Positions 3-11,862 of a stretch of 11,862 nucleotides of DNA are shown piece by piece (positions within the stretch are counted from its first letter, which is position 1; every line of letters starts with the position of its first letter). Position numbers and translations under genes: made by a program. The stretch comes from Nitrospirota bacterium (lineage in GTDB: Bacteria > Nitrospirota > Thermodesulfovibrionia > Thermodesulfovibrionales > Dissulfurispiraceae), in the NCBI GenBank assembly GCA_040754455.1, contig JBFMCP010000059.1, forward strand, positions 1 through 11,862, in the 5' to 3' direction. The notes beneath the pieces were generated by a model, which had not been told where the DNA came from, did not search any database, and worked only from the letters and a program-made list of their open reading frames with translations.

Positions 3-195
3 GAGCCTCTAACGAAATGAAAGAGCCCGGAGTCGGGCAGGGTAGAGTATGAGAGCGGTTTAGACAGCCTACGCGTAACCAGGGATGGTGAAGCAGGCTG
101 TCTCCCTCGGAGGAATGCGTGGATGTATTCCTCCGAGAATGAGCGATCATACTCTGCCTTCTCTGACTCCCTCTTCCTCATTCCGCTAGACGCTC
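3..195 (+). mobile_element. MITE, copy 1 (193 bp, non-autonomous, IS5-family-like ends)
   Basis: Terminal inverted repeats GAGCCTCTAACGAAATGA (3-20) / TCATTCCGCTAGACGCTC (178-195) match at 15/18. Subterminal inverted repeats 29-52 / 147-170 match at 19/24. TAA follows at 196-198 and AA precedes at the window edge. A near-identical inverted copy lies at 10237-10395. No transposase ORF. Confidence 0.8.
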
Positions 196-230
196 TAAAT
201 ATTCGGTTGCACAAGCTGGAGGATACGACA

Positions 231-2918
231 GTGAACTGGTACCAACTCGACATAAAACATATCTTTCAGGAACTCGGAGGCCGTGAAGAGGGGCTCACCG
301 AGGGCGAGGTGCGGGAGCGGCTTGCCCGGTACGGGCCGAACAAGCTTGCTGAAGAGGAAAAGATCAGCAGGTTCAAAATACTGTTGCATCAGTTTACCAG
401 TCCGCTTATCTATATTCTTCTCATAGCCGGGGTCGTGACCATACTGCTGAGGGAGTACACTGATGCAGGCGTTATTTTCGCGGTGCTGGTCCTCAATGCC
501 ATCATCGGCTTCACCCAGGAATACAAGGCGGAAGAAAGCGTGAGGTCGCTGCGGAAGATGGTGGTGCCGAAGGCGCGGGTAATAAGAGACGGTAAAGAGA
601 GTGAAATCCACAGTGAGGAACTGGTGCCGGGCGATATCGTTCTCCTTGCATCAGGAGCAAAGGTCCCCGCTGACCTGCGCCTGTTCCGGGTCAATGAGCT
701 GAAGATCGAAGAGGCTATGCTTACCGGCGAATCTCTACCGTCTGAAAAGATAGCGGATGCCATCAGGGAAGACCGCCTGCCGCCCGGCGATCAGAGGAAT
801 ATGGCGTTCATGGGAACGGTGGTGGTCAACGGAAGGGCGCGGGGTATTGTGGTCGGCACAGGACAGTCCACGATGCTCGGCAGCATTGCGAGCGATGTAA
901 AAGAAATCGGAGTTACGAAAGCACCTATCCAGGAAAAAATAGACAGGTTCGCAAAGGCGATCGGGCTTATCGTCCTGGGAGCTTCGGCGCTGCTGTTCGT
1001 CGTGGGACTGCTCATCGGCGAGAGTATCAAGGATATGTTCATGACCGCAGTAGCAGCTGCGGTGGCGACGATTCCTGAAGGGCTTCCCATTGTCGTTACC
1101 ATAGCGATGGCGATCGGAGTGGCGCGCATGGCACGGCACAACGCAATCATCCGCAAGCTGCCTGCAGTTGAGACCCTCGGGAGCACCACCGTCATCTGCT
1201 CTGACAAGACAGGGACGCTCACCAAAAACGAGATGACGGTGAAGCTGATTTATGACGGGAAGTCGGTATTCGAGGTTGAAGGTGCCGGGTATGCCCCGAC
1301 AGGCGAGCTGATCCACGAGGGCATGCGTGTGCATATAGAGAAGGAGAAGCGCCTGAAGCAGGTGCTGCGCATAGGGCTCCTCTGCAACGAATCGGATGTT
1401 TATGAGGAGGATGGCCAATATAAGGCCGACGGTGATCCCACCGAGGCCGCTCTGATCGTTGCTGCCCTGAAAGCCGGTCTCAAGGCTGATGAGGAAAGAG
1501 AGCATTATCCCCAGGGGGCGATCATTCCCTTTGAATCAGACCGCGGCTATATGGCGACCCTGCATCGGCACAAAGGGAGGTCTTATGCCTTCGTCAAGGG
1601 CGCACCTGAAAAAATACTCGACATGTGCAGCTACGGTGTGGGCGGAGATGCGGTGAGGAAAAATGAGGTCCTCGATATCGCCGGCGATTTCGCGCGGAAC
1701 GGTTTGCGGGTGCTCGCCCTTGCGTTTAAAGAATTCGGTGCCGCGAAAGAGGACCTTGCCCGCCACGACATCGAGACAGGCTTGACGCTTGCGGGACTGC
1801 AGGGTATGATGGATCCCCCCCGCGAGGAAGTGATCGAGGCGATCCTTGGGTGCAAGCGGGCGGGGATCAGGGTCGTCATGATAACGGGCGACCATGCCGT
1901 CACCGCTCAGGCAATCGCACAAAAGCTCGGTATCAGTAGCGGCGGGGATGAGGTGCTTACCGGCAGGGAGCTTGAGGCGATGAGTGATGATGAGCTCTTT
2001 ATAAAGGTGAAAAGGGTTTCGGTCTACGCCCGCGTTGCCCCCCAGCACAAGTTGAGAATAACGCAACAATTAATAAAACGTGGCGAGATTGTTGCCATGA
2101 CCGGCGATGGAGTCAACGATGCGCCGGCGCTCAAGGCGGCGCATATCGGCATTGCCATGGGCAGGAGCGGCACCGATGTGGCGAAGGAGGCATCGGATAT
2201 GGTCCTCACCGATGATAACTTCGCCAGCATCTTCAATGCCGTCAAAGAAGGCAGGATCGTGTTCGACAACCTCCGTAAAGTGACGTTCTTTCTCATTCCC
2301 ACCGGCATCGCCGCGATCCTCTCGATCATCGGTACGATCCTCACAGGGATGCCGATACCCTATGTCCCGGCCCAGCTGCTCTGGATCAATCTCGTCACCA
2401 ACGGCCTGCAGGACGTGGCGCTCGCCTTCGAGCCGGGGGAGCGGGGCGTTATCGACAGACCTCCCCGGGATCCCAAAGAGGGGATCATGTCGCAGGTACT
2501 GGTGCAGAGGACGGTGCTGGTCGGGCTCATCATCTCTGCGGGAGTCGTCTATAACTTCGTATCGGCGCTGAATGCGGGTGACTCCCTTGAGAAGGCACGG
2601 ACGGTTGCAATGACCACAATGGTGTTCTTCCAGTTTTTCCAGGCCTGGAATTCCCGCTCCGAGTTCCAGTCGGTTTTTATTCTCAGCCCGTTCAGTAATC
2701 CCTTTCTCTTCTACAGCATGATCGCTGCGTTCTTCGCCCAGGTGACGGTGCTCTATGTACCCGCGTTGCAGTGGATATTCCAGACAGAACCGATTACGTC
2801 CGCTGAGTGGATGAGGATACTCGCAGTCGCAATAACGATTATCGCCGCGGTTGAGGCGGACAAGTGGATCAGGAGGAGAGGGAAAGGTACAAACCCTTCT
2901 GCCCGGGTGGTACTTTGA
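231..2918 (+). CDS. Cation-transporting P-type ATPase, type II (PacL/SERCA-like fold), 895 aa
   Basis: Motifs LTGES, IPEGL, DKTGTLT, KGAPE, MITGD and TGDGVNDAPAL. GTG at 231 is preferred over ATG 123: it has GGAGG at 218-222, homolog-like sequence (NWYQLD...GLTEGEV..RLARYGPN) starts there, and ATG 123 lies inside the MITE. Confidence 0.95.
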   Translation: MNWYQLDIKHIFQELGGREEGLTEGEVRERLARYGPNKLAEEEKISRFKILLHQFTSPLIYILLIAGVVTILLREYTDAGVIFAVLVLNAIIGFTQEYKAEESVRSLRKMVVPKARVIRDGKESEIHSEELVPGDIVLLASGAKVPADLRLFRVNELKIEEAMLTGESLPSEKIADAIREDRLPPGDQRNMAFMGTVVVNGRARGIVVGTGQSTMLGSIASDVKEIGVTKAPIQEKIDRFAKAIGLIVLGASALLFVVGLLIGESIKDMFMTAVAAAVATIPEGLPIVVTIAMAIGVARMARHNAIIRKLPAVETLGSTTVICSDKTGTLTKNEMTVKLIYDGKSVFEVEGAGYAPTGELIHEGMRVHIEKEKRLKQVLRIGLLCNESDVYEEDGQYKADGDPTEAALIVAALKAGLKADEEREHYPQGAIIPFESDRGYMATLHRHKGRSYAFVKGAPEKILDMCSYGVGGDAVRKNEVLDIAGDFARNGLRVLALAFKEFGAAKEDLARHDIETGLTLAGLQGMMDPPREEVIEAILGCKRAGIRVVMITGDHAVTAQAIAQKLGISSGGDEVLTGRELEAMSDDELFIKVKRVSVYARVAPQHKLRITQQLIKRGEIVAMTGDGVNDAPALKAAHIGIAMGRSGTDVAKEASDMVLTDDNFASIFNAVKEGRIVFDNLRKVTFFLIPTGIAAILSIIGTILTGMPIPYVPAQLLWINLVTNGLQDVALAFEPGERGVIDRPPRDPKEGIMSQVLVQRTVLVGLIISAGVVYNFVSALNAGDSLEKARTVAMTTMVFFQFFQAWNSRSEFQSVFILSPFSNPFLFYSMIAAFFAQVTVLYVPALQWIFQTEPITSAEWMRILAVAITIIAAVEADKWIRRRGKGTNPSARVVL

Positions 2919-2944: not shown

Positions 2945-2990
2945 GAATCACCCCGGCGTCGAAGCACGTCATACAGGAGGGAGCGAGGTA

Positions 2991-3383
2991 ATGAGGGCAA
3001 AATTAATAGTACTAGCAGTTGCGGTATTTTCAGTGTTTTCCTTTGCCGCAGCCCAGGAGTTCAAGGATCTCAGGGCGGAAGAGGTGAAGAAGCTGATCGA
3101 TGCGAAGGCAAAGATGCTCCTGGTGGATGCGCGGACGAGGCAGGAGTATGTCGAGGGCCATATCCCCACAGCCGCTAATATCCCTCCCGAGAATATTTAC
3201 GGCATCGATAGACTGCTGCCCAAAGACAAGACGACGCTCCTTGTCTTTTATTGCCGCGGCATCGGCTGAACGCTCAGCACCAATGCAGCGTTCGCTGCAA
3301 AGGCCCACGGTTACAAGAATATCAAAACCTTTCACGGCGGCTTCCCCGAGTGGGTGTCAAAGGGGTATAGAGTAGCGAAATAA
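2991..3383 (+). CDS. Exported single-domain rhodanese/sulfurtransferase, probable selenoprotein (UGA at 3267-3269 = Sec93), 130 aa
   Basis: GAGG RBS before ATG 2991. Signal peptide MRAKLIVLAVAVFSVFSFAAA. Rhodanese motifs LVDAR..EY..GHIPTA and LLVFYCRGIG-[TGA]. The same frame continues TLSTNAAFAAKAHGYKNIKTFHGGFPEWVSKGYRVAK to TAA 3381-3383, which is the canonical rhodanese C-terminal signature (GY......GG..EW...GY). Confidence 0.88.
3284..3299 (+). promoter_or_regulatory. Candidate bacterial SECIS element
   Basis: Stem TGCAGC/GCTGCA with apical loop GTTC. The loop begins 20 nt after the in-frame TGA and starts with GU, as in the bacterial SECIS consensus. Confidence 0.65.
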
Positions 3384-3401: not shown

Positions 3402-3522
3402 CAGAAGTCAACATCCAGAATTCAGGAGCCGGAAGTCAGAATAAAAAGACAGGTAGATTAAAAAACGGTAAAACCTTTTTATTCTTTTTCTCTGTGCCTT
3501 TATTCCGGCTTCTGGATTTTGG
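3402..3522. repeat. Degenerate heptamer tandem repeat forming an inverted repeat
   Basis: Units CAGAAGT CAACATC CAGAATT CAGGAGC CGGAAGT CAGAATA (3402-3443). 3415-3434 is complementary to 3503-3522 with 17 Watson-Crick and 3 G-U pairs on the + strand. Confidence 0.6.
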
Positions 3523-3851
3523 CCCTCAGGAATTGTGAAGAGCGGCTCTTCGATTGCTTCGCCTTTGCAGGCAGGACACCTGCCGGGCTTCTTCAATCGT
3601 TCCCGCTTCTTGAACGTAAAGCCGCATTTTTTGCACTGCGCGGGAACCACTGCCAGGGGGTGCTCGCTCCTGGCCATCGATTTCTGTATGTGCTCCAGGT
3701 GCTCGTACACCGATTTTTCGGGAATTCTGACCAGAGCGGAGATATCCTTTGCCGTAAGCGTTTGCCCTTTAAGGACGTCTATGATCTCCTGCCGGACGGT
3801 CTCATGCCGCTCGGAAGGGACGGGAGGCTGCTTCGCTCTCTTGTTCATCAT
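3408..3851 (-). CDS. HTH + Zn-ribbon putative transcriptional regulator (COG3357-like)
   Basis: TVRQEIIDVL..LTAKDISALVRIPEKSVYEHLEHIQKS (HTH), followed by CKKCGF and CPACK..IEEP. Start placed at ATG 3851 (or 3848) because the upstream ORF extension does not look coding. The last ~40 aa run through the repeat region. Confidence 0.85.
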   Translation of the reverse strand: MMNKRAKQPPVPSERHETVRQEIIDVLKGQTLTAKDISALVRIPEKSVYEHLEHIQKSMARSEHPLAVVPAQCKKCGFTFKKRERLKKPGRCPACKGEAIEEPLFTIPEGQNPEAGIKAQRKRIKRFYRFLIYLSFYSDFRLLNSGC

Positions 3852-3918
3852 GCACGTAGTATACCCTATAATCATCGCATATGGAGCTGGCGAGCAGGCC
3901 GTCTTTTCACGTAGATTG

Positions 3919-3946
3919 TTGCACCGGAATAACATATACTTAAAAT
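3919..3946 (+). promoter_or_regulatory. Possible sigma70 promoter for the AsmA-family gene
   Basis: TTGCAC (3919-3924) - 16 nt - TAAAAT (3941-3946), upstream of RBS GAGGAGG. Confidence 0.4.
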
Positions 3947-3985
3947 AATGATACAAAGGGACGAAAACACCGAGGAGGAGTACCT

Positions 3986-5701
3986 ATGAGGAAGCTGTTA
4001 TGGATAGGCGGCATACTGGCCGGCGTCGTGGTGGTTATTCTGTTGGGTCTTGCCCTCTTCGTGAAGAGCTATCTCCAGAGCGAACGTCTTAAAGCGCTTA
4101 TTATTCCGCGCATCGAAGCATACACCGGGCGGAAGGTGACCATCAGCGATATACAGGTGTCACTCTTCAAAGGAATCGTTATCAAGGGCATCAGCATCAA
4201 GCAGCAGGATGGTGTCAAGGACTTCATCAGAACCGAAGCATTCATTCTCGATTACAGCCTGCTGCCTCTGTTAAAACGGCAGTTGGTGATCAATAACATA
4301 GAACTGGATACTCCCTCTATAGTGTTACGGAGAGAGAAAGACGGCAGGTACAACTTCAGCGACCTCACGGCACGGGTGGCGCAGAAGAAAGAGAAAGAAG
4401 TAGAGCGGGAGCAGCAGGAGCAGGAGCTGCCGGTATCGATCTTCACCAACAAGATCATCATCCGGAATGCCACGGCTGAGTTTACCGATGCCCTCAACAA
4501 ACTTCCCCATATTGTCGCCCTCGTCCCGAAAACAGAGCTCACCGCCTCACTCGGCAGGGAGACAAAGGGACTGGTCCTGTCCGGCACGGCCGACCTCAAG
4601 AGCGTGACCGCTACGATGGGCAGTCTGCAGACGGTAACTTCCGGCAGGATAGAGATCGAGGAGCGAGCGATCATCGTTGCGCTTACCACCGTGCTCGGTA
4701 AAGATACTATCCGGACATCGGGAACAATAAAAGAGTACCGCACCGCACCCGATCTGCAGCTTAACTTCTCTGCCAAAGAGCTCGACCTCGAGCGGCTTAT
4801 GGCGTTGACTGCAGGAGCAAAGCCAGCTCCTCTTCCTGCACAGGCAAGCAGTGATGCTGCAGAGGAGCGGCTACATCGAGGGTTCGTTGTTCTGGTAAAG
4901 GATGCGCACCAGAGTGAGAAAAAGATGATCAAGGCGGCAGGTGAATTAAAAGTCGACACAGCGCATTATAAAGGATATATCCTGAAAGATGTGATCGCCG
5001 GCTATCGCTACCGCAACGATGTGATGATCATAGACCCGGTACGCATGCGCATTACCGGCGGGACACAGGTGAGCGCAGACGGAACGATGCAGGGGAATCT
5101 TGTCTTTACCCTCGCACCGGGCGGCGGTGATGCTGCAGCGGCAATCAAGAAAACGCTCTCGGGGGTCGGGGATATTGCCCTGAACAGAGTTGCCGTCAAG
5201 CAGACACCCCTCACCGATGCCGTAGCGCGGTTCACCGGGGTCCCGGAACTCAGGAGTCCCCGCTTTGATCGCGGGACATTCAATTTCAAGATCAGGGACC
5301 GGAAAGTAGTCCTCGAAGGCATGCTGGATTCCAGCCACCTTAAAGTTGTCCCCTCGGGAACAGTAGGCTTTAACAAGAGCATCGATATGCTTGCAGACCT
5401 GAGGCTCTCGCCGGGTCTGACTGCCAAGCTCGAGCGGGATGCGAAGGTCACCGGCTATCTCAAGGACCGGGAGGGATGGACCACGATCCCTCTGAGGATA
5501 AGCGGTACGACCGAAAAGCCCTCTGTCAGCCTGAATCCCGCAACAGTACAGAAGCAGCTGCGCAAGGGAATACAGAGCGAACTGGAACGGAGGCTCATGA
5601 GAGAGCTTGCGCCGAAGGATAAGAAGGATAAGGAGAAGGCGCAACCGCCGTCGAAGGGGCCGAGGCCGGAGGAACTATTGAGGGAGCTGTTCGGAAAATA
5701 A
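3986..5701 (+). CDS. AsmA family protein, 571 aa
   Basis: Strong RBS GAGGAGGAG. N-terminal TM anchor, TGRKVTI and LLPLL..QLVI..IEL..P.I.L.R.KDGRYNFSDL motifs. C-terminal IPLRISGT.EKP and helical tail ending in LFGK. Confidence 0.88.
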   Translation: MRKLLWIGGILAGVVVVILLGLALFVKSYLQSERLKALIIPRIEAYTGRKVTISDIQVSLFKGIVIKGISIKQQDGVKDFIRTEAFILDYSLLPLLKRQLVINNIELDTPSIVLRREKDGRYNFSDLTARVAQKKEKEVEREQQEQELPVSIFTNKIIIRNATAEFTDALNKLPHIVALVPKTELTASLGRETKGLVLSGTADLKSVTATMGSLQTVTSGRIEIEERAIIVALTTVLGKDTIRTSGTIKEYRTAPDLQLNFSAKELDLERLMALTAGAKPAPLPAQASSDAAEERLHRGFVVLVKDAHQSEKKMIKAAGELKVDTAHYKGYILKDVIAGYRYRNDVMIIDPVRMRITGGTQVSADGTMQGNLVFTLAPGGGDAAAAIKKTLSGVGDIALNRVAVKQTPLTDAVARFTGVPELRSPRFDRGTFNFKIRDRKVVLEGMLDSSHLKVVPSGTVGFNKSIDMLADLRLSPGLTAKLERDAKVTGYLKDREGWTTIPLRISGTTEKPSVSLNPATVQKQLRKGIQSELERRLMRELAPKDKKDKEKAQPPSKGPRPEELLRELFGK

Positions 5702-5738: not shown

Positions 5739-7349
5739 CTATTTCTTCCGCGCGCAAACTCTATTTCTTCCGCTTCGTTTTGCATCATAGAGCGCGTCAT
5801 CGGCCCGCTTGCTGAGGGTATCGATGTTATCGCCCTCAGTATATTCAGCAACACCGAAGCTGCAGGTTACTCGCCCGACGGTGGTAAAGCGAAAGCGCTC
5901 GATCTCGGTCCGTACTTTCTCGGACAGTTTCTTTGCACCTTCGATACCTGTTTCCGTCGCCAGTATCACAAACTCCTCACCGCCCCAGCGGGCGAAGATG
6001 TCGGTACCTCTAAGGTTTTCTTTGACGATCATCGCCAGCTCCACCAGCACCGTATCCCCTGCCAGGTGTCCGTAGGCGTCGTTGATCTCCTTGAAGTGAT
6101 CGATGTCGAAGATAATGAGCGAGAGACTGATCTTGTAACGCTCGACCCTCTGCAGTTCCAGCTTGAAGAGATCATTGAACTTCAGCCTGTTGTAGATCTG
6201 CGTGAGTGAGTCTGTTGCCGACAGGTGCTCGACATCCGCGATCGATGTTCTGACGGTCTCGAGGAGAGCGTTGAAGGCCTTGGAGATGGCTCCGATCTCG
6301 TCGTCGGCATGTACCGCAACGCTGCTGCTGAAGTCACGGGTCTGAACGATAGCGGTCATGCGCTCCTGGAGGTGCTCCAGTCTGCCGATAATGGTCCTGC
6401 AAAAGAAGATGCTTAGTGCAGCGAGGACGGCCAGCGCAACTATCATAAGGCCGATAGTGATATTGATATGTTGTATCGCCTTGTCCAAATCCCGTGCCGT
6501 ATCCTGCTTTATCTTTCCGATGCTGTAATCTTCCACTTTTTTGAGGAGATCGATAGAGGCGGTCGCCGCATCAAACCACTGGACTGGATCAACGCCTGTC
6601 ATTCTTTCCTCGGATCGTTCCAGTGCAGCAACGATCATATCTGTGGTCGACTGGACGGCCGGTCCACGAAAGGTCTGATGGTAGTAATTTCTGATGTCGT
6701 CTGCTGTCTCCTGCACGAAATTTCTCGTGTTCCTTTCGTAGGCCCTTCGCAGCGTTATGAGCCGCTCCAGCCGGGAGGTGTCGAAAGCGCCGGCGGCAAA
6801 CACCGCACTCAGGGTTGCGCGGATCTGGCCGAGGTATTCTTTCGCAGTCAAAAGATGTGCATGGGCAAAGAGAATGTCTTTTATCTCATGGAGTCGTGCT
6901 GCTTTTGCGATGCCGGTGATTTCGTCAAGGAGCTCTGCGATCGTGTGCGTGTAGAAGTCCTCGGCCTCGAAGGTGGTGCTGTCGAAGGAATCTATCTGGT
7001 TCCGTGTCGCGGCGAGGTTGCTGAAGAGCGAAAGTATCTGCAGGTCGCTCTTTGAGTGTTTCAGGAACGTGCCCAGCTCCTCGATGCGCTTGTCTGTTTC
7101 GCGTCTCTGCGTGCGCAGCCGGTCGCCGGTCTCCCCGCTTCTGCTCGCAAGGTAAAGGGTGCTCAGTCCCCGTTCTTTCTGAAGCTCATGGATGACATTC
7201 GAGATCTTCTCGGCCTGAAGGACCTTTGCATAAACATCCTTCAGGTTGCTTCTGGACGTCAGTCCTTCTCTGATCTCCTGCTGTATAAAAAAGAACAGCA
7301 GGAGGACCGGCGGTAAGCTGAGCAAAGTTATCTTGGCCCTGATCGTCAT
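5739..7349 (-). CDS. Membrane diguanylate cyclase: NIT (nitrate/nitrite-sensing) domain - TM - HAMP - GGDEF, 536 aa
   Basis: TM1 and NIT signatures HELQKERGLS and KEYLGQIRA. TM2, HAMP (DEIGAISKAFN), TDSLT, DIDHFKEINDAYGH, I-site RGTD and active site RWGGEEF. Confidence 0.92.
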   Translation of the reverse strand: MTIRAKITLLSLPPVLLLFFFIQQEIREGLTSRSNLKDVYAKVLQAEKISNVIHELQKERGLSTLYLASRSGETGDRLRTQRRETDKRIEELGTFLKHSKSDLQILSLFSNLAATRNQIDSFDSTTFEAEDFYTHTIAELLDEITGIAKAARLHEIKDILFAHAHLLTAKEYLGQIRATLSAVFAAGAFDTSRLERLITLRRAYERNTRNFVQETADDIRNYYHQTFRGPAVQSTTDMIVAALERSEERMTGVDPVQWFDAATASIDLLKKVEDYSIGKIKQDTARDLDKAIQHINITIGLMIVALAVLAALSIFFCRTIIGRLEHLQERMTAIVQTRDFSSSVAVHADDEIGAISKAFNALLETVRTSIADVEHLSATDSLTQIYNRLKFNDLFKLELQRVERYKISLSLIIFDIDHFKEINDAYGHLAGDTVLVELAMIVKENLRGTDIFARWGGEEFVILATETGIEGAKKLSEKVRTEIERFRFTTVGRVTCSFGVAEYTEGDNIDTLSKRADDALYDAKRSGRNRVCARKK

Positions 7350-7400: not shown

Positions 7401-7958
7401 TCAATCACAACATCTTTGCAACAACATCGCCTCCTTGATGGCGTGCGCCTTTTCTTTGCTGACAAGCCTTTGAACAATGGCGAGGCCGAAGCAGAGGGCA
7501 GTGCCGGGACCCTTGCTGGTGAGAATGTTCCCATCCTCCACAACGATCCTGTCCTCATAGGTTGCCGTGCCGAGCCGGTCTTTGTAAGAGGGATATGCCG
7601 TGGCACGTTTTCCCGAAAGAACTCCTGCGCTGGCGAGCACATAGGGAGCTGCACAGATGGCACCGGTAAGCTTTCCCTTACTACAGAATTCTTTGATGAG
7701 TCCTTTGACCCGTTCGTCGGCATTGAGGTTGTCCGAACCGGGCTGGCCTCCCGGTAATATGATCATATCGAAGTCGTCAGCCCTAATGGTGTCGACGGTG
7801 GTATCGGGAACTACTTTAACCTTTCGTGCGCTCTCAATCGGGCCGTCATGCAGCCCCGCAATCACCGTTTGTATCTCCGCCCTCCTCAGCACATCGACGA
7901 TCGATACTGCCTCGACCTCTTCAAACCCGTCAGCAAGCACGATTACGACTTTCGGCAT
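7401..7958 (-). CDS. yajL: DJ-1/PfpI family (YajL/ThiJ-type) glyoxalase III / deglycase, 185 aa
   Basis: LADGFEEVE, LPGG.PG, catalytic AICAAP, TAYP and TSKGPGTA motifs; RBS AAGGAGG. Confidence 0.93.
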   Translation of the reverse strand: MPKVVIVLADGFEEVEAVSIVDVLRRAEIQTVIAGLHDGPIESARKVKVVPDTTVDTIRADDFDMIILPGGQPGSDNLNADERVKGLIKEFCSKGKLTGAICAAPYVLASAGVLSGKRATAYPSYKDRLGTATYEDRIVVEDGNILTSKGPGTALCFGLAIVQRLVSKEKAHAIKEAMLLQRCCD

Positions 7959-8012: not shown

Positions 8013-8819
8013 TTATTCCGCAGCGGCATCAGCCTGCTGCGGATCTTGTTCTGCATTCGCTCCGACGGCGTAGTAAAGGTAGCCGAGGGCGAGGAAAAAA
8101 GAAATGACGGATTTGTAGGGAAATTCTATATCCAATACGACGTGAATGGTTTGCAGGATGATTGCCGGGGTAAAGGAGACGGCTGCCAGGCGGATGAGCG
8201 CCTTGTAATCCAGAGCGACCTCGAACCTCTTGGCAAAATAGAAGCCGACGGAGGCGCAGAAGATGACCTGGAGCGCGTAAAAGAGAAACGAGAAGAAGAG
8301 GGCGAAAGGAAAGACCATGAAGGCGAACCAATGCTTGAACGATTCGGTCCATCCGTAGATCCTGCTCTTGTCGATGATGTAGTGGTCGATCCCCGAAAGG
8401 TCGAACGTGCGTGTCTCGGACGGCGCATCGAGGAAGCCGCTTTTGGCGATCAGCGCGGTTTTGGTGAGCAGTATCGTTGTCGTGCTGCCGGGCGAGGTGG
8501 TTTTGCCGGAGGTATCAATGACAGCGAAGGGCGTCTTCTTGTCAGGTCTGTAAATGGTATACGGCACCGGCTCCTTGATCGACGCCGCGCCGTTGGTAAT
8601 GGTGATGGTCGGGACCTGTTCGATGATATGCGGGGCATTGGCATCGATGATGTCGGCAATGTATGCCTGTGTCTTCATAGTCTCGGGAATCCAGTAGAGC
8701 GCCAGCAGGAAAAGGAGGTAGAGGAACCCGTACCCTTTCCAGTTCTTCCCGATATCGTTATAGAGCGGGCGGGAAAAAAACGACATAAATAGAGAATGTA
8801 TAAAGGTATAGTTTCTCAT
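8013..8819 (-). CDS. DUF1189-like membrane protein, 268 aa
   Basis: SFFSRPLY.DIGKNWKGYGFLYLLFLL N-terminal TM, soluble region (P.ITITNG, VIDTSG) and 3-4 C-terminal TMs with Y.ALIRLAAVSFTP. Start placed at ATG 8819 because the longer ORF overlaps dusB. Confidence 0.75.
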   Translation of the reverse strand: MRNYTFIHSLFMSFFSRPLYNDIGKNWKGYGFLYLLFLLALYWIPETMKTQAYIADIIDANAPHIIEQVPTITITNGAASIKEPVPYTIYRPDKKTPFAVIDTSGKTTSPGSTTTILLTKTALIAKSGFLDAPSETRTFDLSGIDHYIIDKSRIYGWTESFKHWFAFMVFPFALFFSFLFYALQVIFCASVGFYFAKRFEVALDYKALIRLAAVSFTPAIILQTIHVVLDIEFPYKSVISFFLALGYLYYAVGANAEQDPQQADAAAE

Positions 8820-8880
8820 AACAGAATGTATTATAACTAACTTTTGAGTTTCGTGCTTGCTTTTAGATAAAATATCGATT
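8820..8880. promoter_or_regulatory. AT-rich divergent promoter region
   Basis: Plus strand: TTGAGT (8844-8849) - 18 nt - TAAAAT (8868-8873). Minus strand: perfect TATAAT at 8835-8830. Confidence 0.55.
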
Positions 8881-9882
8881 GTGCTTACTATTGGAACATT
8901 GAGGCTGTCGAAGCCCCTTGTACTCGCTCCCATGGCGGGGATAAGCGATCTGCCGTTCCGCCTCATTGCCCGCGAGTTCGGCTGCGAGCTCGCCTTCATA
9001 GAGATGATCAGCGCCCGCGCCCTCGTGTACCGGAACAGGAAGACAAAGGAGATGCTGTCGACGCTCCCGGCGGACCGGCCGCTGGGGGTGCAGCTGCTGG
9101 GGAATGATCCGCGTATCGTCCCGCAGGCACTCGAAAATCTGCGTCCTTATAAATTCGATATCATCGACGTTAACGCCGCCTGTCCGGTCGGCAAAGTAAC
9201 CACCCGCGGTGAGGGCGCCGGACTGCTGAAGACACCTCAGGTACTGCACCGGTTCCTCAAAGCTGTTGTGGCGCATGCCGATGTGCCGGTGACGGTGAAG
9301 CTGCGCGCAGGGTGGGATGAATACTCGATCAATGCCCGCGAAATGGCGCTCCTTGCACAGGATGCCGGCGTGCACGGCCTGTTCATCCATGGGAGGACAA
9401 AAGTTCAGGGGTATAGCGGCAGTGTAGATTACAGGGTGATTGCCGGGGTCAAGCGGGCGCTCGATATCCCGGTGATTGCCAGCGGCGATGCGCTCTCGCC
9501 GCAGCTGATAAAGAAGCTGTTCGATGAGACCGGCTGTGACGGCGTTGCCATAGCGCGCGGCGCATTGGGTAATCCATGGGTATTCCGCGACACGGTTTGT
9601 TTTCTTGAAAATGGTGTGCTTCCTGAACGGCCCTGCCTCGACGAGCTGACCGGTGTCATGCGCCGCCACCTGAGTCTCTGCATTGAGTATTATGGAGAGC
9701 ATATCGGAACAATGATGTTCCGGAAGCTCTTTGCATGGTACATAAAGGGGCTCTCCGATGTGCGGCCGCTAAAAGAGAGGGCGTTTCAGGCAAAGACAAA
9801 AGACGAGATGGTTGCGATTATGGCAACGCTTACGAGTGGAAGAGGCGATTCCTCAAGGGGCAGTGCCTCGTTGGCTGCGTAG
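8881..9882 (+). CDS. dusB: tRNA-dihydrouridine synthase B
   Basis: LAPMAGISD, EMISA, QLLG, DVNAACP, PVTVKLRAGWD, IHGRT, IPVIASGD and ARGALGNPW motifs. GTG 8881 gives a typical MLTIG N-terminus; TTG 8857 is an alternative start. Confidence 0.93.
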   Translation: MLTIGTLRLSKPLVLAPMAGISDLPFRLIAREFGCELAFIEMISARALVYRNRKTKEMLSTLPADRPLGVQLLGNDPRIVPQALENLRPYKFDIIDVNAACPVGKVTTRGEGAGLLKTPQVLHRFLKAVVAHADVPVTVKLRAGWDEYSINAREMALLAQDAGVHGLFIHGRTKVQGYSGSVDYRVIAGVKRALDIPVIASGDALSPQLIKKLFDETGCDGVAIARGALGNPWVFRDTVCFLENGVLPERPCLDELTGVMRRHLSLCIEYYGEHIGTMMFRKLFAWYIKGLSDVRPLKERAFQAKTKDEMVAIMATLTSGRGDSSRGSASLAA

Positions 9883-9902: not shown

Positions 9903-10100
9903 CTATATTACCCGCTTCTTCAGCCGCTCGGCGTACTCGGTGGCGTGTTCGGCAATATCTTCTGCAAGGTCTTTGATCTGCCGCCGGGTCTTTTTCCCTG
10001 ACTGCGGCGCCATGAGCAGTGCAAGTCCTGCGCCGACAGCCCCTCCCAGGAGAAAAGAGAAGACCGCGACCATTGCGAGGCTTTTTTCCGTCCGTTCCAT
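9903..10100 (-). CDS. YtxH-domain small membrane protein, 65 aa
   Basis: FLLGGAVGAGLALLMAPQSGKKTRRQI is the YtxH signature. RBS AAGGAGGT precedes ATG 10100. Confidence 0.9.
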   Translation of the reverse strand: MERTEKSLAMVAVFSFLLGGAVGAGLALLMAPQSGKKTRRQIKDLAEDIAEHATEYAERLKKRVI

Positions 10101-10134
10101 GGTAACCTCCTTAGGCGGGTTTATACCTATCCCT

Positions 10135-10163
10135 ACCTTATCATGCCCATAGGCCGGAGTCAA
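10135..10163 (-). promoter_or_regulatory. Sigma70-type promoter for the YtxH gene
   Basis: TTGACT - 17 nt - TAAGGT with an extended -10 TG on the minus strand. Confidence 0.5.
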
Positions 10164-10236
10164 GGGCAGCTCATAGCCTACCGCTCGTGGTTTATAACTC
10201 ACGGGAGGATAAAAACCCCGGTATGTGTTAATCTTA

Positions 10237-10395
10237 GAGCATCTAACAGAATGATCACTCATTCTCGGAATGCATCCACGCATTCCTCCGAGGGAGACAG
10301 CCTGCTTCACCATCCCTGGTTACGCGTAGGCTGTCTAAACCGCTCTCATACTCTACCCTGCCCGACTCCGGGCCCTTTCATTTCGTTAGAGGCTC
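10237..10395 (-). mobile_element. MITE, copy 2 (159 bp, internally deleted)
   Basis: Flanked by direct TTA (10234-10236 and 10396-10398); TIRs match at 15/18. Its reverse complement matches 3-125 with one mismatch. Relative to copy 1 it lacks 3 bp in one hairpin and a 31-bp block bounded by TCAT. Confidence 0.85.
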
Positions 10396-10420: not shown

Positions 10421-11862
10421 CTAGGGGCTACAGGCTATGAGCCTTTCGAATTCTTCCGGAGGCAGGGGCTGCCCGGAGAGATAGCCCTGCATTTCATCGC
10501 ACCGCATGGCCTGGAGGAATGAACGTTGGTCTTCGTACTCCACACCCTCGGCGACCACCTTTATTTTCAAATTATGCGCAAGGACAATGATCGCATGGAC
10601 GATCGCTTTGTTGTCAGTGTCGATCAGGAGATCGCTGATAAAGGATTTGTCGATTTTCAATTTGTGTATCGGGAGCTTTTTGAGGTAGCTGAGTGACGAG
10701 TAGCCGATGCCGAAATCGTCAATCGCACAGCGGACACCCAGCTCGTTCAGGGCCGACAGCTTGTAGGCGGCGGCCTCGATGTTCTGCATGATCGTACTCT
10801 CAGTGATTTCTATACAGAGGAAGCGGGGGTCGAGAGAGGTGTCCCGCAAGACCTCATCGACGGTCTTGACGAGATTGGTATGCTGCAGATGGTGCGCTGA
10901 AAGATTTACCGTTACACAGAGGGGAGCGTATCCTGCGTTCTGCCATGCCTTGTTCTGAGCGCAGGCGGTGCGCAGCACCCATTCATCGATTGCGGTGATC
11001 AACCCGGTCTCTTCAGCGAGGGGGATGAACTGCAGGGGGGTGAGCAGCCCTAGATCGGGATGTCTCCAGCGCACCAGCGCCTCCATTCCGGTGATCTTCC
11101 CGGTGCCGATGTTCACCAACGGCTGGTAGTGCACCGTGAGTTCCTCCTGTTGCAGAGTGTGACGGAGGCCGTGTTCGAGGACGATTTTCCTGAAGGCCTT
11201 TACGTTTATGACAGGGTTATAGAACTGATAGTTGTTTCTGCCCTCCTCTTTTGCATGGTACATCGCGGTGTCGGCGTTCTGCATCAGAATACCGGCATCA
11301 TCCCCGTCATTCGGGTAGATGCTGATGCCGATGCTGACGGTGATGTGGAGTTCGCGGCTGTCGATGCTATAAGGCTGCTTGAACGCCGCGATGATCTTTT
11401 CGACGATGGTGACGATATCCTCCTCATGGTTGACCTGGGAAAGCAGGATCGTGTATTCGTCGCCGCCCATGCGGGCTATCATATCCGCTTCGCGCACGCT
11501 GGCCTTGAGGCGGTGGGCAACGGCGATGAGCAGTTTGTCGCCGAGGGCGTGGCCGAGGGAGTCATTGATGGTCTTGAAGCGGTCGAGATCCAGAAACATC
11601 ACCGCCAGCTTTTTTCCGCTGCGGTGCGCCTGACTCAATGCGAAATCGAGGTGATCGATAAAAAGTATCCTGTTCGGCAGGCCGGTGAGCGCGTCATGGT
11701 ATGCCTGACGCCGTATGGTCTCCTCCATTTGTTTCAGCTCGGTGACATCCTGGGCGGTCCCGAACATTTTTATTACATTGCCCTTTTCATCAGCGACCAC
11801 CTGCCCCCGGCAGTGCAGTATGCGGACGAGCCCGTCCGGCCCGAGGGTCCGGTGGTAATAAT
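10421..11862 (-). CDS. PAS/PAC-GGDEF-EAL diguanylate cyclase/phosphodiesterase, 5'-truncated by the window edge
   Basis: The frame is open to the window end (YYHRTLGPDGLVRILHCRGQVVADEKG..GTAQDVTE = PAC). GGDEF motifs YHDALTGLPNR, DLDRFKTINDSLGH and RMGGDEY. EAL motifs EALVRW, DDFGIGYSSL, KIDKSF, AEGVE and QGY. Confidence 0.95.
   Translation of the reverse strand, partial: YYHRTLGPDGLVRILHCRGQVVADEKGNVIKMFGTAQDVTELKQMEETIRRQAYHDALTGLPNRILFIDHLDFALSQAHRSGKKLAVMFLDLDRFKTINDSLGHALGDKLLIAVAHRLKASVREADMIARMGGDEYTILLSQVNHEEDIVTIVEKIIAAFKQPYSIDSRELHITVSIGISIYPNDGDDAGILMQNADTAMYHAKEEGRNNYQFYNPVINVKAFRKIVLEHGLRHTLQQEELTVHYQPLVNIGTGKITGMEALVRWRHPDLGLLTPLQFIPLAEETGLITAIDEWVLRTACAQNKAWQNAGYAPLCVTVNLSAHHLQHTNLVKTVDEVLRDTSLDPRFLCIEITESTIMQNIEAAAYKLSALNELGVRCAIDDFGIGYSSLSYLKKLPIHKLKIDKSFISDLLIDTDNKAIVHAIIVLAHNLKIKVVAEGVEYEDQRSFLQAMRCDEMQGYLSGQPLPPEEFERLIACSP

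Follow-up and report, generated by a model that had tools for sequence, protein, structure and literature searches.

The window analysed here, a stretch of 11,862 nucleotides, corresponds to contig C59 in the genome of a Nitrospirota bacterium, an assembly of 3.27 Mb in 92 contigs, and between the genes for a P-type cation ATPase and a PF0610-like protein it holds a short gene for a predicted exported rhodanese with an in-frame TGA (Table 1). The earlier note had described the called ORF as stopping at this TGA, five residues past the active-site Cys of the rhodanese, with the frame running on for another 37 codons. Both points are borne out by the sequence: the frame stays open to a TAA, and the read-through product comprises 130 residues. 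The truncation that the note expected of standard annotation is also found, as gene callers end the ORF at position 3269 and the database entry (P0002) is a protein of 92 residues. The TGA is not a sequencing error, for contigs from three other, independent studies (two of hot springs and one of soil) carry codon 93 unchanged. GGAGG-like sequences precede the start codons of the orthologues too.

Table 1. Features of the rhodanese gene and the other genes of the window.
Feature	Position	Strand	Basis or remark
P-type cation ATPase	123-2918		
Shine-Dalgarno-like GGAGG	2976..2980	+	Read directly; 10 nt 5' of ATG
Predicted selenoprotein gene, 130 codons + TAA, TGA-93 as Sec	2991..3383	+	
Start codon ATG	2991-2993	+	
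Predicted Sec-type signal peptide, residues 1-21	2991..3053	+	By eye
Rhodanese homology domain, residues 29-123	3075..3359	+	Pfam PF00581
Cys88 codon TGC, canonical rhodanese active-site Cys	3252..3254	+	
TGA, codon 93, predicted to be read as selenocysteine	3267..3269	+	Conserved TGA / Cys column
SECIS-like hairpin, 6-bp stem + GUUC loop	3284..3299	+	RNAalifold consensus, covariation
True stop codon TAA	3381..3383	+	
PF0610-like ORF	3408-3956	-	
AsmA/DUF748 protein	3986-5701		
NIT-HAMP-GGDEF sensor	5739-7349		
DJ-1/PfpI	7401-7958		
DUF1189	8013-8999		
Dus	8857-9882		
YtxH	9903-10313		
GGDEF-EAL protein	10421-11800		

The surroundings of the gene, compared by Pfam annotation of 100 ORFs across the loci of 12 orthologues (some 12 kb each), are syntenic only in close kin, where the rhodanese gene is convergent with a PF0610-like HTH/Zn-ribbon gene that is followed by AsmA and NIT-GGDEF genes. 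Across these 12 loci there is no recurrent neighbour of the CcdA/DsbD, cytochrome, or sulfur-metabolism kind, and by Pfam no other gene of the window is obviously linked to the rhodanese. With no conserved functional partner, the neighbourhood offers no operon argument. The PF0610-like ORF has a tail of ~40 residues beyond its Zn-ribbon domain that is absent from its 114-residue orthologue in G029, and within its 3' end (3416-3446) sits a dispersed repeat of 31 nt. Complete or partial copies of this repeat, about 30 in all, are scattered over many contigs of the genome, with one immediately past selB (C2:176232); public contigs are interrupted at the repeat, where the depth rises about sixfold.

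The protein matches the rhodanese profile PF00581 at E 7e-19 (68.6 bits versus a cut-off of 22.2) over profile positions 2-101 of 102. This match spans the TGA, in agreement with the earlier proposal that the codons past it encode the missing C-terminus of the domain, so that a product ending at the TGA would be without its last third. The signal peptide proposed by the same note has its features visible by eye in residues 1-21, namely two basic residues (R2, K4), a hydrophobic stretch of 14 residues, and A-A-A directly ahead of Q22; the pattern is kept in 12/12 orthologues with a placeable start codon, and the AlphaFold (AF2) model gives residues 2-19 as a low-confidence helix. Judged from this signal, we infer a periplasmic location for the rhodanese, with a precursor of 130 residues and a predicted mature, secreted single-domain form of about 109 residues. 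No start codon could be placed at two further loci, L025 (G007), with additional in-frame TGAs upstream, and L036 (G050), with an extra TAG near the 5' end; the 5' ends of these orthologues may be mis-assembled, or their starts may be unusual.

The active-site loop reads Y-C88-R-G-I-G-U93-T-L-S. Cys88 is invariant in alignment A2, in which the orthologues also keep U-x-x-S/T. The AF2 model, for which Cys was substituted for Sec in a 19-row input alignment, has a mean pLDDT of 90.6 and shows Cys88 where the central strand ends (strand 83-87, loop 88-94, helix 95-105); its Foldseek matches are the rhodanese structures 3tp9, 3nhv, and 6mxv (E 6e-9). Aligned to 6mxv, with two one-residue gaps, the loop exceeds those of characterised sulfurtransferases by one to two residues and is without their usual Arg at +5. 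Hence, ordinary thiosulfate:cyanide sulfurtransferase activity should not be assumed for this protein.

The TGA is conserved among related genomes. A homologue search of 61 genomes from the same genus, family, and order gave 14 best matches, each from a genome of its own, with identities of 48-99% and one TGA inside every match, and these 14/14 orthologues span several families of the order. The [FY]C-x-G-x-x-U context is found in 13 of them, and the remaining one (G053) has two extra residues in the loop, with U still at its end. Among 33 database homologues, 24 are only 89-98 residues long, and the three of these short entries that we inspected all terminate exactly at the loop motif YCRGIG. 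The seven full-length database homologues (129-142 residues) have Cys at the Sec column in six cases; the seventh, the JGI-sourced P0005, has W both at this column and at the expected stop, followed by 13 extra residues. As W also stands at the stop position, the gene caller evidently took TGA for a Trp codon in this sequence, and P0005 is probably a gene call that hides a selenoprotein. Position 93 is thus occupied by TGA or Cys in these homologues, the lone Trp being a translation artefact. Further Cys forms were sought with a pattern from a 7-row alignment, by which 30 stretches were matched, 19 confirmed, and 17 assigned to the family, from MAGs of other Nitrospirota, Syntrophorhabdus, and Myxococcota; since the pattern demanded Cys, these 17 loci are uninformative on the relative frequency of Sec and Cys.

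The codons past the TGA also behave as coding sequence. Pairwise dN/dS values (NG86) among 13 orthologues, with G053 excluded for its indel and synonymous-saturated pairs dropped, have a median of 0.24 over the 35 codons past the TGA (36 of 78 pairs usable) and of 0.22 over the 60 codons ahead of the Cys (22 usable pairs). By these ratios, purifying selection acts on the stretch beyond the TGA as it does on the stretch ahead of it. A maximum-likelihood tree of 37 Sec and Cys forms has five changes of the Sec label, of which well-supported branches force only one; with about 110 columns and poor resolution, this tree does not tell one Cys-to-Sec switch from several.

Downstream of the TGA, the earlier note had pointed to a hairpin with a GUUC loop at a distance of 20 nt; this holds for the loop (3290-3293), and the stem (3284-3289 / 3294-3299) begins 14 nt past the TGA, the whole lying inside the codons for Ala-Ala-Phe-Ala-Ala. 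Taken alone, the window sequence is unexceptional: its 81-nt fold has z = -1.18, 25 of 200 shuffles fold as well, and the single-sequence minimum free energy structure favours another, non-conserved pairing over the hairpin, so that any significance has to come from comparing orthologues. RNAalifold finds one element in the alignment of the 14 orthologues, with a 6-bp stem and a 4-nt loop, 14 nt after the TGA. Four of the six stem pairs are invariant G-C, which the codon pattern GCN-GCN-NNN-GCN-GCN (Ala-Ala-x-Ala-Ala) forces, leaving two informative pairs, both between third codon positions. The first of these is GC in six sequences, UA in three, GU in two, AU in one, and unpaired in two; the second is UA in six, AU in two, CG, GC, and GU in one each, and unpaired in three. 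The covariation score of 0.224 (for an 8-pair helix) compares with 0.065 for column shuffles and is reached by 0/500 of them, although, as the sequences within each group are akin, this test and the rank test below overstate significance. Sliding the partners by 1-3 columns lowers the score to at most 0.107.

The same 16 nt form a more stable hairpin in the Sec forms than in the Cys forms, with mean energies of -8.6 kcal/mol (14 sequences) and -5.2 kcal/mol (16 sequences), respectively (rank test, p = 2e-4), even though G+C is higher in the Cys forms (64%) than in the Sec forms (55%); this comparison leaves out L081, whose frame is broken after the loop, and two distant Labrys loci. Bacterial SECIS elements follow the rule of a G within the first two loop positions, and a G is found at loop position 1 or 2 in 14/14 orthologues. 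Hairpins at a similar distance after the UGA also occur in five other candidate Sec genes of this genome (two selD genes and three TGA-containing ORFs). No Rfam family is matched anywhere in the window. Taken together, these comparisons support a role of the short hairpin 14 nt 3' of the UGA in helping Sec decoding.

The genome carries the full machinery for selenocysteine, with a tRNA-SeC of anticodon tca, a selA match at 521 bits, a selB match at 376 bits that lies above its cut-off, and two selD genes with one in-frame TGA each. Elsewhere, TGA terminates genes: the neighbouring, upstream ATPase ORF ends on a TGA (2916-2918), and in the G010 orthologue (locus L029, G010:C9) the loop TGA, as Sec, is followed 35 codons later by a second TGA that is the real stop. 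TGA is thus not generally read as an amino acid in this genome.

At least three rhodanese genes of this genome carry a TGA, at two different loop positions. A second selenoprotein candidate, P0035 (G000:C11, locus L090, 868-2235, minus strand), has 455 residues, a signal peptide, a heme-c-type motif CKQCH, and three rhodanese domains, with a loop C-A-G-P-T-U of the C-x-G-x-x-U kind; the matches in many relatives carry one TGA within open frames of 440-500 residues, and no NCBIfam model matches it above cut-off. On contig C16 (G000:C16:53098-53403, plus strand) lies a rhodanese with a TGA at the catalytic position, Y-U-G-S-G-V-R-S, which is of the known UxxG type and has a hairpin after its UGA. 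The closest paralogue (G000:C21, locus L086, about C21:48400-52000) is an exported tandem rhodanese of 252 residues with the loops CNGVKC and CNTGSRS, encoded on the same strand as an adjoining ArsR-family regulator and a Sec-containing selD; upstream at this locus are two unannotated exported proteins of 230 and 181 residues without a Pfam match.

A profile search of a collection of 5.8 billion proteins recovered 3,694 relatives at E <= 1e-8. The rhodanese subgroup with CxGxxC loops to which the earlier note had referred is well represented here: among the best 120 of these relatives, the C-x-G-x-x-C loop is present in 111, three stop at the loop, one has W at the column, and 89 have an N-terminal hydrophobic run. 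From the prevalence of this loop and of the N-terminal runs, the protein emerges as the Sec variant within a large family of exported rhodaneses that have one domain or tandem domains. All family relatives are annotated only as 'rhodanese-related sulfurtransferase'; they include a homologue from Desulfurivibrio dismutans, and the family is spread in sulfur-cycling anaerobes. A profile search of 1.84 billion representatives gave C-x-G-x-x-C in 76/148, with a top list dominated by multi-domain rhodanese repeats. The exported C-x-G-x-x-C rhodaneses of Nitrospirota, Thermodesulfobacteriota, and Myxococcota (38-52% identity) are like the present protein in length, signal peptide, and loop; in contrast, the second position of their loop is a Cys, and no hairpin of comparable stability is found there in their DNA. 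A structural counterpart is the structural-genomics rhodanese BH2092 of Bacillus halodurans (PDB 3nhv, 3o3w), among the top Foldseek matches with a TM of 0.76, whose loop Y-C-W-G-P-A-C aligns without gaps to Y-C-R-G-I-G-U; it differs in having Cys in place of Sec, and its crystallised construct has no visible signal peptide.

Sec-containing rhodaneses are, as had been claimed, a described class: a table in a 2026 review (PMC13188914) lists five forms, of which form 1 has a UxxS motif, forms 2 and 4 UxxG, form 3 CxU, and form 5 (TsoB) UxxxxU. The present gene is therefore an added member of this class, and possibly a new form of it. No curated selenoprotein model claims the protein above cut-off. 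The best-scoring curated family is TsoB (NF045694), with 64.1 bits against a cut-off of 805, and only its rhodanese part is matched (protein residues 16-129 on profile positions 35-157). Both share the x4 spacing between two chalcogen positions and an N-terminal rhodanese after an export signal, when the loops are compared by motif and profile. TsoB, however, has ~572 residues and Sec at both positions, whereas the present protein is a stand-alone one of 130 residues with Cys first and one Sec. The TsoB profile positions of about 184-396 and 420-570, which we read from the family name as DsbD-type membrane and thioredoxin-like parts, match separate ORFs of this genome, and no TsoB above cut-off is present in the genome itself or in 301 genomes of the phylum.

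With forms 2-4, the protein has in common that they are rhodanese-fold selenoproteins of anaerobes. With the form 3 model rhodanese_LYCAU (CxU, NF041203), the protein reaches 48.7 bits, short of the cut-off of 115, and Sec lies here at +5 rather than +2. In the UxxG forms 2 and 4, Sec replaces the catalytic Cys, whereas here Cys88 is retained and Sec follows five residues later. The motif of form 1 (UxxS, exemplar WP_010941598.1) fits the U-T-L-S of the present loop in a comparison by motif only.

The best explanation for these observations as a whole is an exported rhodanese in which UGA-93 is decoded as Sec and Cys88 and Sec93 carry out sulfane-sulfur chemistry, a reading to which we assign a probability of roughly 0.8. 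Its decoding step, that UGA-93 is read as selenocysteine by the SelA/SelB/SelD/tRNA-Sec system, almost certainly holds on the genomic evidence, as the earlier note had suggested: the machinery, the conserved TGA, the Cys homologues, the dN/dS values, and the covarying hairpin all support it, and none of the outcomes that the note had named as refuting it is observed. That the TGA is instead a true stop, yielding a truncated 92-residue product or a pseudogene with the downstream frame a relic, would accord with the behaviour of gene callers and with the stub lengths of 24/33 database homologues. Yet the TGA stands at the same codon throughout the 14 orthologues of several families, the frame behind it is open and appears constrained (dN/dS 0.24), homologues have Cys at that very column, and by the model a product reaching only residue 92 would be without the last helix-strand-helix of the fold, which makes a true stop hardly credible. 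The W of P0005 might in turn be taken for a UGA read by suppression or an alternative code as Trp, Cys, or Gly. This has a next to negligible probability, as P0005 has W at its stop too and so betrays its translation table, TGA terminates neighbouring genes, the genome has the complete Sec machinery along with the conserved hairpin, and homologues carry at this position a Cys, the classic counterpart of Sec.

As to what the selenoprotein does, it would in our reading act in the periplasm on sulfane sulfur, or perhaps on selenium, through its Cys/Sec pair. Such a redox pair is suggested by the TsoB layout with its DsbD-type relay, by the dissimilatory sulfite reductase of the organism (the genome carries dsrA), and by the spread of the family; counting against a firm functional assignment is that neighbourhoods are not conserved beyond close kin. 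The main rival is a selenium-handling role, in which the same selenoprotein would have a selenium or tellurium substrate and would carry or reduce selenium derived from selenite in the periplasm, with a perselenide or selenotrisulfide bound at the Cys/Sec pair. It would thereby feed selenium assimilation or detoxification, by analogy with ExtH of Geobacter. ExtH, a rhodanese-like lipoprotein, is placed by PMC6148476 in a cluster tied to the reduction of selenite and tellurite, and rhodaneses of the ExtH type are linked to selenite reduction; the reference list of PMC13510729 also bears on ExtH. The heavy genomic investment in Sec, with its several TGA-carrying rhodanese genes, and the place of the closest paralogue (first loop CNGVKC), whose neighbours are a gene for an ArsR-type regulator and a selD with Sec, would also fit such a role. 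We consider it rather unlikely, as the rhodanese gene itself has no selenium-related neighbour, the position of the paralogue beside selD has no direct bearing on it, and the ExtH model NF040901 has no match to the protein (P0001) at E <= 1. Longer loops in the rhodanese/Cdc25 fold are associated with phosphorus or arsenic substrates. The loop here, being longer than the six-residue sulfurtransferase loop, could thus hint at a selenoprotein that resembles an arsenate reductase or phosphatase of the Cdc25/Acr2 type, or a redox sensor, rather than a transferase; but the Arg of C-X5-R is absent, with Thr or Gly at +6, and no ars genes lie near the locus, so that a function of this kind seems very improbable.

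For the preferred sulfane-sulfur reading, we envisage that the protein would be exported via the Sec pathway, after which Cys88 and Sec93 would work as a chalcogen pair in the periplasm of this Nitrospirota bacterium, which carries dsrAB. One of the two would take sulfane sulfur from polysulfide, thiosulfate, or S0, its partner would resolve the adduct as an Se-S bond with the sulfur released or handed on, and this bond would be re-reduced via a thiol-disulfide relay of the CcdA/DsbD type. More tentatively, and with appreciable doubt, the C-x4-U loop, which is C-x4-C across the family at large, may mark the turning of a simple persulfide carrier into a two-chalcogen redox enzyme with an intra-loop Se-S bond. 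In sulfur-cycling anaerobes, this enzyme would serve as a periplasmic sulfane-sulfur/polysulfide reductase or would handle insoluble S0, and it would be recharged by a relay of the DsbD/CcdA type. If true, this would give the large, functionally unassigned family of exported rhodaneses a catalytic mechanism of a new kind, common to the stand-alone form, the 455-residue form that combines CxxCH with rhodanese domains, and TsoB as the fused form.

The finding corrects a gene that is truncated in public annotation, and the stubs of 89-98 residues that make up most of its closest database relatives indicate that the selenoproteome of sulfate-reducing Nitrospirota is undercounted. The presence of TGA-carrying rhodanese genes with two loop positions in a single genome makes this organism a good system for the question of selenium preference. 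More generally, the exchange of Cys and Sec points out a redox-active site in the widespread exported C-x-G-x-x-C rhodaneses, namely the second position of their loop. Beyond the annotation itself, the value of the finding thus lies in this second position as a functional key to the family and a testable clue to its role in periplasmic sulfur (or selenium) chemistry.
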